Made by a program: the position numbers. Source: Bdellovibrio sp. (GTDB lineage Bacteria; Bdellovibrionota; Bdellovibrionia; Bdellovibrionales; Bdellovibrionaceae). Taken from it: a stretch of DNA of 64,000 nucleotides. Within the stretch, counting starts at the first letter, position 1. The number at the start of each line of letters is the position of its first letter. Shown one piece after another: positions 33,001-36,000 of the stretch. The stretch lies in assembly GCA_036676395.1 (NCBI GenBank), contig JAKFCY010000002.1, positions 1,664,001 to 1,728,000 on the forward strand. The letters run 5' to 3'.

Positions 33001-36000
33001 AAGCTTCTTCTTTGCTGATTGATAAAATTTCAGCTGTGTAAGCAAGACCTGTAGTTAACTTTTTACCGACGCCGCCAACGCTATCTTCAAACAATGAAGC
33101 AAAATCTTGCGATTTTGTGTTGTTCGTTGTCGTTGTAATTTCATCACCAAAAACATCTTTTTTAGACATAGAAAATCCTTACCTTTTACGAAAGGCATTA
33201 CTTTACTTGAATATTTTTAATTACTTAAGATTTTTTCTTAACTCGACGCTTAACTGACAGCGTCAACTCAAATTCTGCCACTCTTTCAGTCTGGCTTACC
33301 GAAGGAACGATCGCATAGGCCTTCATCGTCCGGTTTATGCGCTCTTCAGAGGTTTTAGCCTCATTGATCTGATCAACTACGACCTGGGCCTCTTCACAGA
33401 TAAAATGCACATCACCTTCGGCGCGTTTTAAGAAATTGGCCTTATAATCTTTAAATAAAAAATCAATACGTTCGCCAGAGGCTTGAATTTGTTTAACTGC
33501 AAGCATAGCAATGCAAAGCTCAGAACCCACAGCCAGTGCGCCAAAGTACATAGCCCCTAAGTGGTTTTTAGTTCTAAAGTTTAACGGAACCTTTAATATA
33601 GTTCTTTGATTGTTGGCTTCTAAGACTTTTGGTCCAACAAAGCCAATTAACGGGATTTTAGACCAAGCGTACAAAGTTAAAAATAGATTCTCTTTAAAGT
33701 TTTTCATAGTGCTCATTCACTAAATTCTAGCTTCATCTCAATAAATAAGCCAAACTTTTAATATGACAACACAACAAAGCGCGCTGACAAAGATCGAAAC
33801 TCCTTTAACCAAGATGTTAGGTATCCGTTACCCGATCATCCAAGCCCCCATGTTTTTAGTCTCAAATGTCGACATGGTCGTGGCAGCTTCTGAAGCCGGA
33901 GCCATCGGAACATTTCCCGCATTGAATTACCGCCCTGTTGAAAAATACATCGAGGCTTTAAAGGAAATGAAAGCCCGTACGAAAAAACCTATTGGTTTAA
34001 ATATTATCGTAAACAAATCAAACACTCGCGCCAAAGAAGATTTAAAACATGCTCTTGATGCCGGGGTAAATTTATTTATCACTTCGCTTGGTTCACCCAA
34101 AGAAGTGATCGCTGAAGCCCACAAAAATGGAGCAAAAGTAGTGTGTGATGTCGTAAATCTGGAGCACGCCAAAAAAGTTCAGGATTTAGGAGCTGACGGA
34201 GTGATCGCGGTTGGCACTGGCGCTGGTGGGCACGCAGGCCCGCTATCACCCATCGTTTTAGTTAACTGGTTAAAACACGAATTAGAAATTCCAATTATCG
34301 CAGCCGGCGGAATCGCCAACGGCGCAACCATGGCTTCGATGATGGCCGTTGGTGCCGCAGGCGTAAGCATCGGCACAAGATTTATCGCCAGCACTGAAGC
34401 TAAAGTCGAACAAGCCTACAAAGATGCGATCGTGAATTCATCACCAGAAGATATCGTACTCACAACAAGAATCTCGGGCACACCTGCTGCTGTGATCAGA
34501 ACTCCCTACGTCGACAAAATGGGTTTAGATTTACCGTGGTACCTAAAAATGGCCAAAGACCAAAAGACTCTAAAAAAATACATCGTTCCATTAATCCATT
34601 ATTTAGGATCAAAATCCCTAGAACAAGCAGCCGTCGGCCCGACATGGAAAACAGTTTGGTCAGCAGGACAATCTGTAGGCTTGGTCGATGACATCATTCC
34701 CTGTGAACAAATCATAAAAAATCTAGTCAGTGAATACGAAGAAACATTAGCTAGCTTACCAAAAGTACAATAAAGAATTTCAATGCACGCTCTGTATTTG
34801 GGTTTACACTAATTTTAAAAGTGTAAACCCAAATACAGAGCAAATACGAATCCCGATCTAAAAATTCAATAACCAAACTCCGCCATCCCAAATGATCTGA
34901 CGGCAGGAAGCCGTCAGAAGCATCAGCAGGATGCGAGCTCCGTAAAAACGCTACTCCAGCAAAAACTACGAAGCGCAAAAATAAAAAAACCGTTAGCTAA
35001 TCAGCTAACGGTCATGCCCCTCGAGAGAATCTTAAAATTTAAATAATTATTGCATTAAATCAGAAACGAAGTCTTCTAAGCCAGCGCATTTAGGTAAATC
35101 TAATTTGCACTCTTTCATCACTTCGATAGCTTTTGCCTGAGCGATTTTATCAGCTTCCATAGCTTGGAATAAAAGTAATTCTAAGCGATCAGTATACGCG
35201 TACACAGATTTATGTTGTGGCCAAAGGTTTTCAACATCGTTCGATCCACCGATGCTTAACGGGATGAAGTGATCGATCTTGAAATCACCGCGATTCATTG
35301 AACGGATTTTAAAACCTAATTCTTGATCATAATCAGCAATGATTGCGTTTTTTTCGCCTGAAGAAACATTGCGTTCACAGTAAGTGATTTGCTGAGCGTA
35401 GCGTTTTGTGCCGCGTTCACACAATTTACCTGGAGTCATTTCTGCATCTGGGTGAATAGGATATTTGTCAGATGGATTTAGCCCAGTAGTCGGAGCTTTA
35501 TCTGGTTCTGGAAAACTTGGTTTATTAGGTTCGCTTGGTTTAGCAGGAGCCGGTTTTTTCTTTTTTTCAGAGTAATCTTGGCGAGAAACTTGTTTCGCTT
35601 GATCATCAGCACAAGTTTGCGCAGTTGCGAAAGAAGCCGTTAAAGTAAAAGAGATAGCAGCGATAAGGTTTAAGATTACCTTAGTGTTTAGTCCTTTAGA
35701 ACAGTTCATAGATCCTCCATAGAAAAGCATTACGGTGCTTTGTAGAAACGTCGGGCCAATCCCCAACTTATACGTGGTAGTTGTTGTGGCTAGAGATAAT
35801 CAAATTACCCCCAGCTCTGGCAACTGTTAAAAAACGAATATTTCGCGAAGTGTCTAAACACTGCTAAGCAGAGCTTAAGGTGCCGAAGTTTTAAGCCAAG
35901 TTTGGGTGCGACCTAGTAGGCTGAAACCTATAAATCCTCGCACCTCTAATTTTTCACCGTTTTCGATCAGGGTCATTTTCGCTTTGTAAGTTTTACCGTT

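Follow-up and report, generated by a model that had tools for sequence, protein, structure and literature searches.

A guanine-I-type riboswitch overlaps the ribosome-binding site of a predicted secreted HNH-type nuclease gene in Bdellovibrio

Guanine-I riboswitches are known from genes of purine synthesis, salvage and transport (PMC9295807). What, then, does a purine aptamer control when it stands in front of a gene for a predicted secreted nuclease? The question is raised by a locus of Bdellovibrio sp. in the window, by which we mean the whole 64-kb stretch of DNA analysed here. RF00167 (Purine, Rfam) matched there with 47.8 bits against a gathering cut-off of 37 (E 6.4e-05 in the window), and this was the single match in the 3.40-Mb genome (E 8.2e-7 genome-wide). 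The match overlaps the start of a 220-aa ORF by 10 nt. A first-pass annotation had described the genome's only purine riboswitch, a guanine-type aptamer, immediately ahead of a protein with an N-terminal signal peptide and an HNH motif, and had located the ribosome-binding site inside the 3' strand of helix P1. Each of these observations was borne out (Table 1), yet P1 of this copy proved to be weak.

The RNA has the three-way junction of guanine-I riboswitches (RF00167; B. subtilis xpt-pbuX type) together with the complete set of their ligand-contact nucleotides, U22, U47, U51 and C74 (PMC9295807; PMC6847200, in excerpt). The closing pair is A21-U75, and L2 and L3 retain the GG and CC, respectively, that would be available for the loop-loop pairing of guanine-I RNAs. 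For comparison we used 101 genomes of the family (G000 included), a larger and different set from that of the first-pass annotation, in which RF00167 gave 140 aptamer matches. J2/3 is exactly GUUUCUAC in 128 of these 140 relatives. C74 fails to align in a few rows only, and these are visibly misaligned. By sequence, the aptamer is a genuine guanine-I type, with guanine or hypoxanthine as the predicted ligand. Assignment to the adenine class was rejected, position 74 being C and not U.

Table 1. Positions in the window of the riboswitch elements, the gene behind it and the flanking signals.
Feature	Coordinates	Strand	Remarks
Purine riboswitch aptamer	35700..35795	-	Rfam match, the genome's only one; covariation in 140 relatives
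Three-way junction proper	35778..35714	-	inside Rfam match
P1 5' strand	35778..35771	-	
J1/2 UAA	35770..35768	-	contains U22 (35770)
P2	35767..35762 with 35755..35750	-	
L2 GAUUGG	between P2 strands	-	6 nt
J2/3 GUUUCUAC	35742..35749	-	contains U47 (35748) and U51 (35744)
P3	35741..35736 with 35729..35724	-	
L3 CCGUAA	between P3 strands	-	6 nt
J3/1 UC	35723..35722	-	2 nt; position 73 = 35723, C74 = 35722
P1 3' strand UAUGGAGG	35714..35721	-	Shine-Dalgarno GGAGG = 35718..35714
Spacer AUCU (4 nt), then AUG	AUG 35709..35707	-	
ORF, 220 aa (g01663)	35047..35709	-	signal-peptide-like N-terminus, linker and conserved domain
Putative beta-beta-alpha-metal (HNH) core	35155..35283	-	residues 143-185
Promoter-like site TTGCCA-16 nt-GATTAT	35796..35823	-	consensus match; 1 site vs 1.6 expected in shuffles
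Intrinsic-terminator-like hairpin (11 pairs) and T-run	34978..35013	-	begins 34 nt past stop codon

The N-terminus of the ORF product carries K5 and K10, a hydrophobic stretch (residues 11-27) and an AXA site (A28-T29-A30) followed by Q, and the predicted model places a helix at residues 9-30. Residues ~1-30 are thus signal-peptide-like, and the protein is putatively exported by the Sec pathway. A Lys/Pro-rich linker (~34-80), present in the closest relatives only, leads into a conserved domain of ~140 aa (80-220), modelled with pLDDT >=92 from residue 81; more distant relatives align to residues ~75-220 only. The HNH-like core of this domain comprises a strand FKIDH (D146, H147), a loop with N157 and N161, a strand LWPQH (H166) and then a helix. 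Among 69 sequences D146, H147, N157 and N161 never vary, and H166 is kept in at least 90%. In the model (strands 143-147 and 162-166, helix 167-185, pLDDT >95), the conserved His (general base), Asn and His/Asn (metal) expected of an HNH motif lie on a beta-hairpin plus helix. The only Pfam profiles to recognize the ORF were HNH ones, all below their thresholds, HNH_5 with E 8e-4 (19.7 bits, cut-off 27.5) and HNH with E 3.4e-3 (17.9 bits, cut-off 21.4). HNH_5 was also found at E <= 0.01 in 35 of 69 relatives (best 6.6e-5), which matched no Pfam families other than HNH ones. A search of NCBIfam gave nothing for the product, and four of the regulated proteins had no family there. A Foldseek search of the PDB with the HNH-like model returned no match at E <= 0.001, the weak rows including colicin and pyocin DNases, and the best hit of the HNH-like profile among PDB sequences was Cas8f-HNH (E 0.07). 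C97 and C111 are invariant in the family and would fit a disulfide formed after export. We consider the product HNH-type nuclease-like, and predict from its sequence that it is a secreted, active nuclease.

The association of switch and gene is conserved. The HNH-like protein gave 91 matches in the 101 family genomes, and for 70 of these an RF00167 match on the same strand lies ahead, at a distance of -9 to +134 nt; among the matches with E <= 1e-20 the proportion was 69 of 80. The 11 strong copies without a listed aptamer had no Rfam match at E <= 1 in ~600 nt around their 5' ends. A same-strand upstream aptamer also accompanies 66 of the best 80 named loci of the protein, the titles of which nearly always name Bdellovibrio, Pseudobdellovibrio, Bacteriovorax or Oligoflexales. 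The riboswitch-nuclease pair, noted earlier as conserved, reaches further than first claimed, into other families of the phylum and to at least three other nuclease-type gene families. Elsewhere in the phylum, 14 of 14 aptamer matches precede either HNH-like genes (11, profile E <= 2.5e-40) or genes for EEP proteins (3, PF03372 above cut-off).

Viewed from the aptamer, the gene downstream of the 140 family matches encodes the HNH-like protein in 70 cases, endonuclease I (Endonuclease_1, PF04231) in 39, all exceeding the Pfam cut-off, a ~190-aa secreted PD-(D/E)XK-like family in 16, DUF3465 in 7 (6 exceeding the cut-off), DNase-I-like EEP proteins in 3 (below cut-off) and an EamA transporter in 3; 2 genes had no family call. 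Thus, 135 of the 140 precede secreted nuclease-type or DUF3465 proteins, in place of the purine synthesis, salvage or transport genes found under guanine-I riboswitches. A crude signal-peptide-like pattern was present in 123 of the 135 products of these five secreted classes. The ~190-aa family has an invariant ELD...ExK and was modelled with pLDDT 91; its weak Foldseek rows were nearly all nucleases of the restriction-endonuclease fold (best E 0.011, probability up to 0.93). A profile of this family retrieved designed helical repeats only from the PDB sequences, which we took as spurious, and DUF3465 gave nothing below E 0.37 against the PDB. Note that the genome's own endonuclease I gene has no riboswitch upstream, not even a degenerate one; like the 11 strong copies of the HNH-like protein that lack the switch, this counts against the reading preferred below. 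In Bdellovibrionota the same switch is thus placed before several unrelated families of predicted secreted nucleases, which points to a nuclease regulon and suggests that purine levels set the amount of nucleic-acid-digesting enzyme.

Is such a regulon new? The first-pass annotation had held so, and our searches of article texts turned up no publication that connects nucleases in Bdellovibrio with a purine or guanine riboswitch. The regulon itself is apparently undescribed, but the claim has to be narrowed by a partial precedent. The 2'-dG-II riboswitch, likewise a purine-family aptamer tied to DNA-acting genes, has been described in front of genes for endonuclease I and ComEC (PMC8872408, in excerpt, citing Weinberg et al. 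2017). Its 12 known members are all metagenomic (PMC5473149) and were assigned to Bacteroidetes (PMC8872408, in excerpt). Besides 2'-dG-II, our search found no published nuclease association of a purine-family riboswitch.

We think it reasonably probable that the RNA is a translational OFF switch on a secreted HNH-type nuclease, and that nucleases under this switch behave as purine-acquisition genes. The leader mRNA would form the classical three-way-junction aptamer, with a short P1 whose 3' strand serves as the ribosome-binding site. At low cytoplasmic levels of guanine or hypoxanthine, P1, being weak, would breathe, allowing the 30S subunit to bind and the nuclease to be made. Binding of the base (Watson-Crick to C74, with further contacts to U51, U47 and U22) would lock P1 and the junction, keeping the Shine-Dalgarno sequence in and beside a compact fold, and translation initiation would drop. 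The nuclease, putatively exported via Sec, may represent the first step in acquiring purines from outside nucleic acid, possibly the DNA or RNA of prey or of the environment. It would be shut off at purine sufficiency, as are the genes for uptake and salvage that classical guanine riboswitches control; the expected logic, the silencing of purine-importing genes, is the same. Here we depart from the first-pass annotation, which had proposed direct end-product feedback. Feedback of this kind cannot be direct, since what nucleases release are oligo- and mononucleotides rather than free bases; guanine or hypoxanthine would therefore report purine sufficiency several steps downstream.

Secreted nucleases are known from a predatory relative. 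Bd0934, Bd1244 and Bd3507 are secreted endonuclease I nucleases of Bdellovibrio bacteriovorus; two of them, Bd0934 and Bd3507, have been reported as released into the bdelloplast, with sequential expression during predation (PMC7925074 and PMC3593177, both in excerpt). Riboswitches are mentioned nowhere (0 occurrences) in either paper. The three are signal-peptide proteins, as the window product is predicted to be, and their family, endonuclease I, ranks second among the targets of the switch; the window product is of another family, the HNH-like one. Deletion of secreted endonucleases in B. bacteriovorus left predation and prey-DNA breakdown intact and altered biofilm behaviour (PMC3593177, in excerpt). 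This result would suit an HNH-like protein that is not a feeding enzyme at all but serves in DNA uptake, helps to remodel biofilm or matrix, or works as an antibacterial DNase; its control by purines would then be incidental. The colicin and pyocin DNases among the weak structural rows fit the last of these roles, and many HNH DNases are toxins. Nevertheless, the window gene has no adjoining immunity-like gene, and five unrelated secreted families stand under the same purine-sensing leader, which is most simply explained by a shared purine supply. We consider a non-feeding role unlikely.

Position 73, a conserved A in guanine-I, is U in the window copy; the 140 relatives have A in ~60% and U in ~37%. 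Position 73 belongs to the second shell and is not used for defining the guanine-I class. In addition, L2 and L3 of the window copy are each 1 nt shorter than the 7-nt loops of guanine-I; lengths of 7/7 occur in 87 of the 140 relatives and 6/6 in 17. Owing to U73 and the shorter loops, affinity or specificity could differ from guanine-I. A different purine derivative arising from nucleic-acid breakdown (such as 2'-deoxyguanosine, guanosine or xanthine) might accordingly be sensed, as in the 2'-dG classes found before DNA-processing genes, and the endonuclease I and ComEC association of 2'-dG-II lends this idea some appeal. Moreover, at the equivalent position of 2'-dG-II, A77U changed affinity 7-fold (PMC6847200, in excerpt). 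However, every first-shell position of the window RNA is that of guanine-I, including the pyrimidine at position 51 that is held to decide between nucleobase and nucleoside (PMC6847200, in excerpt). The 2'-dG-II class, which binds the nucleoside and not the base, is defined by C51, by two nucleotides inserted into J3/1 and by G21-C79 as the closing pair (PMC6847200, in excerpt). These features and C47/C48 are all missing from the window aptamer, and we rejected this assignment. Nor does the window RNA deviate in all three joining regions as 2'-dG-III does (PMC9295807). A ligand other than guanine or hypoxanthine is in our view quite unlikely.

The direction of control was judged from the expression platform. 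Classical guanine riboswitches act through transcription terminators. In contrast, the leader sequence and a terminator scan revealed no intrinsic terminator between aptamer and AUG, and transcriptional attenuation was rejected, there being neither space nor a terminator between P1 and the start codon. What is present is a bare translational platform with the Shine-Dalgarno sequence in a very short P1. P1 of the window copy has 4 contiguous pairs (A-U, U-A, G.U, C-G), an internal loop and 2 further pairs. The best window for an anti-Shine-Dalgarno duplex is GGAGGA, at offsets 3-8 from U75. In the P1 mini-fold 3 of these 6 bases are paired (G78, G81, G82), and two Shine-Dalgarno bases stay unpaired even in the best P1 model. 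Of all 137 leaders with an assigned start codon, 124 had 2 or more bases of the best Shine-Dalgarno 6-mer paired in the mini-fold, and 104 had 3 or more. P1 is short throughout (median 4-6 contiguous pairs), as expected of a helix that must open without ligand. In the 134 non-transporter leaders among them the start codon lies 8-18 nt past U75, one misaligned row excepted. Since the Shine-Dalgarno sequence is within P1's 3' strand or directly next to it, with the AUG at this distance, a ligand-stabilized P1 can only hide the site.

Modelling of the leaders lent the OFF switch no support. The distal 5' strand is more complementary to the Shine-Dalgarno segment than a control segment further upstream (median -2.0 vs -0.6 kcal/mol), but across the family this did not exceed mononucleotide shuffles (mean -2.18 vs -2.0, p 0.23). 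The complementarity therefore reflects C-rich composition and not an ordered anti-Shine-Dalgarno. In a nearest-neighbour ensemble model of the 134 leaders the two states could not be told apart: the Shine-Dalgarno sequence was unpaired with a median probability of 0.30 without constraint and of 0.31 when the aptamer was forced. The unconstrained leader fold (MFE -19.2 kcal/mol, z -0.03) did not recover the aptamer.

These ensemble values are also compatible with an ON switch, in which purine bases from digestion would induce the nucleases in a feed-forward manner by freeing a ribosome-binding site masked without ligand. Such a response would be attractive for a predator meeting a burst of nucleic acid, and guanine-type aptamers with ON logic are known (guanine-II and xanthine-II; PMC9295807). 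However, a separate anti-Shine-Dalgarno helix for the ligand to dissolve would find no space in the alignments and has left no conserved trace there, and the placement of the Shine-Dalgarno sequence and AUG leaves ligand nothing to do but conceal the site. The adenine riboswitch of Vibrio vulnificus add illustrates the difference. It too is a purine aptamer acting on translation initiation in a Gram-negative bacterium, and is an ON switch with U74, in which a separate downstream helix masks the Shine-Dalgarno sequence without ligand. In the window RNA the Shine-Dalgarno sequence belongs to P1 itself and C74 is kept. We regard ON control as very unlikely.

Covariation supports the aptamer fold. 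Of the helix cells in the 140 aptamers, 83.4% were paired, compared to 64.4% in shuffles (0 of 500 shuffles reached this value) and 33-40% in slid registers; pairing amounted to 96.6% in P2, 94.4% in P3 and 89.2% in core P1. Cells changed on both sides numbered 646 vs 239 in shuffles, again with 0 of 500 reaching the observed value. Small purine models do yield spurious AU-rich matches (PMC2258182, in excerpt) and the window copy has the lowest RF00167 score among its close kin, but with a score over the Rfam cut-off, all junction nucleotides present, compensatory changes in P2 and P3 and a fixed position ahead of the gene, chance resemblance is refuted for all practical purposes.

A wider proposal, which we advance tentatively and with slightly less than even confidence, is that Bdellovibrionota have turned the canonical guanine aptamer almost entirely to the control of nucleases. 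One RNA fused to the ribosome-binding site would govern secreted nucleases of four or more unrelated folds (HNH-like, endonuclease I, DNase-I-like EEP and PD-(D/E)XK-like) as well as DUF3465, so that the cytoplasmic purine-base level would pace the breakdown of nucleic acid from prey or the environment. Guilt by association would also give a nucleic-acid-related role to two secreted families that lack characterization and annotation, namely DUF3465 and the ~190-aa PD-(D/E)XK-like proteins. If true, the logic of the oldest riboswitch class would no longer be confined to purine synthesis, salvage and transport but would take in the digestion of polymers outside the cell, and predatory bacteria would gain a simple metabolite-level governor of nuclease output. 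The switch would offer a testable regulatory handle on the timing of nucleic-acid degradation in Bdellovibrio-like predators. Few expression-control tools have been described for such organisms (reviews PMC7174725 and PMC11209729, in excerpt), and the element is compact and native (about 65 nt plus Shine-Dalgarno sequence) and is predicted to be ligand-responsive in translational control.

Finally, the segment 35648..35850 is matched with 95-99% identity by four short contigs that stem from RNA or RNA-labelled runs and that, as contigs, cannot show transcription, ends or levels. One metatranscriptome contig spans 35648..35767; DNA is possible in such libraries. The RNA libraries contain only small shares of the 64-kb stretch. 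The promoter-like site upstream would put the transcript start ~18 nt upstream of aptamer A21. The terminator-like hairpin behind the gene (1 site vs 0.9 expected in shuffles) has its position as the sole real argument in its favour. With these two signals on either side, the unit looks monocistronic.

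A cmscan search of the 64-kb window placed one Rfam family above threshold, the purine riboswitch RF00167, at 35700..35795 (-) with 47.8 bits against a gathering score of 37. A search of the entire 3.40-Mb genome returned the window copy as its single match. This confirms the first-pass annotation in its observation that the only purine riboswitch of the genome lies before the gene for the HNH-like protein. Going by the positions of a promoter-like site and a terminator-like hairpin, neither of which exceeds chance in count, the gene would form a monocistronic unit. The leader (35648..35850) has matches at 95-99% identity in short contigs of RNA or RNA-labelled runs. 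Two of these contigs diverge at 35712, with a variant ORF that begins at the hydrophobic signal segment (~8 N-terminal codons fewer); both retain the Shine-Dalgarno (SD)-in-P1 layout.

Elements of the riboswitch locus in the window; aptamer elements were read against the Rfam model
Feature	Sequence	Position	Strand	Remark
Promoter-like site		35823..35796	-	weak; count not above chance
P1, 5' strand	ACCACGUA	35778..35771	-	
J1/2	UAA		-	
P2	GUUGGG/CCCGAC		-	6 bp
L2	GAUUGG	35756..35761	-	
J2/3	GUUUCUAC	35749..35742	-	
P3	AAAGCA/UGCUUU		-	6 bp
L3	CCGUAA	35730..35735	-	
J3/1	UC	35723..35722	-	
P1, 3' strand	UAUGGAGG	35721..35714	-	
Spacer and start codon	AUCU, then AUG	AUG at 35709	-	from P1 3' strand to start
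HNH-like ORF		35047..35709	-	220 aa
Terminator-like hairpin		35013..34988	-	count not above chance
Neighbouring gene		35875..36348	-	DUF2147 protein (E 1.3e-33), signal-peptide-like start
Neighbouring gene		36421..37926	+	501 aa; weak response-regulator receiver match only

We aligned all 140 RF00167 matches from 101 genomes of the family, including that of the window; 81 of the 101 genomes contain a match. Standard pairs occupied 83.4% of the P1/P2/P3 cells, versus 64.4% in shuffled sequences and 33-40% in slid registers. None of 500 shuffles paired as highly as observed, a figure that is not to be read as a probability because the 140 sequences are mutually related; the slid-register control preserves this relatedness. 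Pairing was 96.6% in P2, 94.4% in P3 and 89.2% in core P1, and hundreds of alignment cells carried changes on both sides of a pair.

In guanine-I aptamers the ligand is contacted by U22, U51 and C74, with U47 (PMC9295807). All four are found in the window aptamer, and J2/3 is identical in 128 of the 140 relatives. The 2'-dG-II class is marked by C51, a two-base insertion in J3/1, a G21-C79 pair and C47/C48 (PMC6847200), all of which are missing here. The adenine class would require U74, and C74 stands in its place. By every first-shell criterion tested the aptamer sequence is that of an ordinary guanine-I member. Position 73 (35723) is U, the guanine-I consensus being A; about 37% of the 140 relatives also have U. 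Both L2 and L3 have 6 nt in the window copy, one base fewer than in the 7/7 arrangement of 87 relatives. Seventeen of the 140 have the 6/6 combination, and these account for 17 of the 31 aptamers with a six-base L2. U73 and the shortened loops may mark a docking or affinity variant.

A start codon could be assigned in 137 of the 140 leaders, the other three having none within -20 to +40 nt of the match end. In leaders of secreted proteins it lies 8-18 nt past U75, the sole exception being one misaligned row. The 6-mer that best binds the anti-SD overlaps the P1 mini-fold by at least two bases in 124 of the 137 leaders, and by at least three in 104. P1 is short, the median run of contiguous pairs being 4-6. 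The window P1 consists of A-U, U-A, G.U and C-G, an internal loop, and two further C-G pairs, with three of the six SD-window bases paired. No candidate for a terminator or second helix was found between P1 and the start codon. No OFF design is simpler: ligand-stabilised P1 and the docked junction would hide the ribosome-binding site. Complementarity of the SD segment to the distal 5' strand was no better than to shuffled 5' segments, and SD accessibility in nearest-neighbour ensembles was equal with and without the aptamer forced. These two tests add no support, and the direction of the switch is thus argued solely from its architecture. The three leaders of EamA transporters (L065, L132 and L138) have a different expression platform, with 47-53 nt between U75 and the start and a C at J2/3 position 48.

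The Pfam matches of the window protein were to HNH families only, all under cut-off. HNH_5 was matched at E <= 0.01 by 35 of 69 relatives (one of 70 ORFs, L053, is cut by a contig end and was left out), and no other kind of family was matched. D146, H147, N157, N161, C97 and C111 are invariant in the alignment and H166 is nearly so. The AlphaFold model (mean pLDDT 83, above 92 from residue 81) has strand 143-147, a loop, strand 162-166 and helix 167-185, a beta-beta-alpha arrangement. Public relatives, from Bdellovibrionota, are named "HNH endonuclease signature motif containing protein". With K5 and K10, then a hydrophobic stretch and A-T-A preceding Q, the N-terminus looks like a Sec signal. 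It is followed by a Lys/Pro-rich linker at residues ~34-80, common to the closest relative only. We infer that the protein is exported and has nuclease activity.

Cross-tabulating the two family scans, 70 of the 91 protein matches lie just downstream of a same-strand aptamer (69 of 80 at E <= 1e-20), and 65 of the 101 genomes contain the pair. Eleven strong HNH-like copies (L156-L166) have no purine aptamer upstream, even at E <= 1; some are second copies, their genomes having a riboswitch-linked copy as well. An aptamer lies upstream on the same strand in 66 of the 80 best named loci for the protein, which overlap partly with the genomes of the family and phylum scans. These loci include records of Bdellovibrio sp. 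qaytius, Pseudobdellovibrio, Bdellovibrio, Oligoflexales and Pseudobacteriovorax; those without an aptamer are mostly Bacteriovorax or Bacteriovoracaceae.

The other 70 family aptamers precede genes for Endonuclease_1 (PF04231; 39), a ~190-aa family without Pfam match (16), DUF3465 (7), EEP-like proteins (3), EamA transporters (3), and short or cut ORFs of unclear class (2). In 76 of the 81 aptamer-bearing genomes, all matches precede one of five secreted classes (HNH-like and the first four of these). The ~190-aa family (L009:1589-2161 (+), L020, L034, L038-L040, L043, L049, L063, L073, L076, L085, L088, L100, L136 and L140) has a signal-peptide-like start, an invariant ELD...ExK and four invariant cysteines in an alignment of 15 of its 16 members, L076 being truncated. 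Its confident model (pLDDT 91) gave weak Foldseek rows, almost all to restriction-endonuclease-fold nucleases (NucC, MspJI, BstEII, Card1, Can2, Mus81); the best E was 0.011, with probability up to 0.93, and none reached E 0.001. As modelled, the family most resembles PD-(D/E)XK nucleases of this fold. The DUF3465 proteins (L005, L029, L068, L069, L079, L081 and L108; ~150 aa) have a signal-peptide-like start; no solved relative or function was found for DUF3465, and association with the aptamer hints at a nucleic-acid-related role. In the phylum sample, 24 of 151 genomes had an RF00167 match. Fourteen matches fell outside the family, 11 before HNH-like genes (profile E <= 2.5e-40) and 3 before EEP genes (PF03372 above cut-off).

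We consider a translational OFF switch that senses guanine or hypoxanthine the somewhat better bet for this leader. When either base is low, P1 would be open, allowing the ribosome to bind and the nuclease to be made and exported; once base is bound, locking of P1 and the junction would prevent initiation. The nucleases would then count among the genes for purine acquisition and be repressed by the final product of that chain, with prey nucleic acid or environmental DNA/RNA as substrate. The first-pass annotation had proposed direct product feedback on this one nuclease. The signal is several steps from the nuclease products (oligo- and mononucleotides), so we replace that part with sufficiency sensing. 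We regard the interpretation as partly supported and widen it to a regulon.

On these first-shell criteria the guanine-I aptamer is ordinary, but its wiring to nucleases is not. The closest case in the literature is the nucleoside-sensing variant 2'-dG-II, located before genes for endonuclease I, ComEC, phospholipase D and a receiver-domain protein (PMC8872408); its twelve known members come from metagenomes only (PMC5473149). In the texts searched, no purine riboswitch was linked to nucleases of Bdellovibrio-like bacteria; an earlier mention elsewhere is possible. A transcriptome paper mentions riboswitches, but neither purine nor guanine nor a nuclease gene, and a B. qaytius preprint reports "three putative riboswitches" without naming the genes. 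The words Bdellovibrio and nuclease are absent from the accessible sections of two general surveys (PMC2258182, PMC5473149), as is "riboswitch" from those of the Bdellovibrio nuclease papers (PMC7925074, PMC3593177). According to the latter two papers, B. bacteriovorus expresses secreted endonuclease I enzymes sequentially as it preys and releases them into the bdelloplast, and prey-DNA breakdown continued in single and double deletions. The window genome has a single endonuclease I gene (G000:C2:650002-650928; L155:1222-2148, +), whose 308-aa product has a signal-peptide-like start; no purine riboswitch lies upstream of it. In several other genomes of the genus, the riboswitch does stand before the endonuclease I gene.
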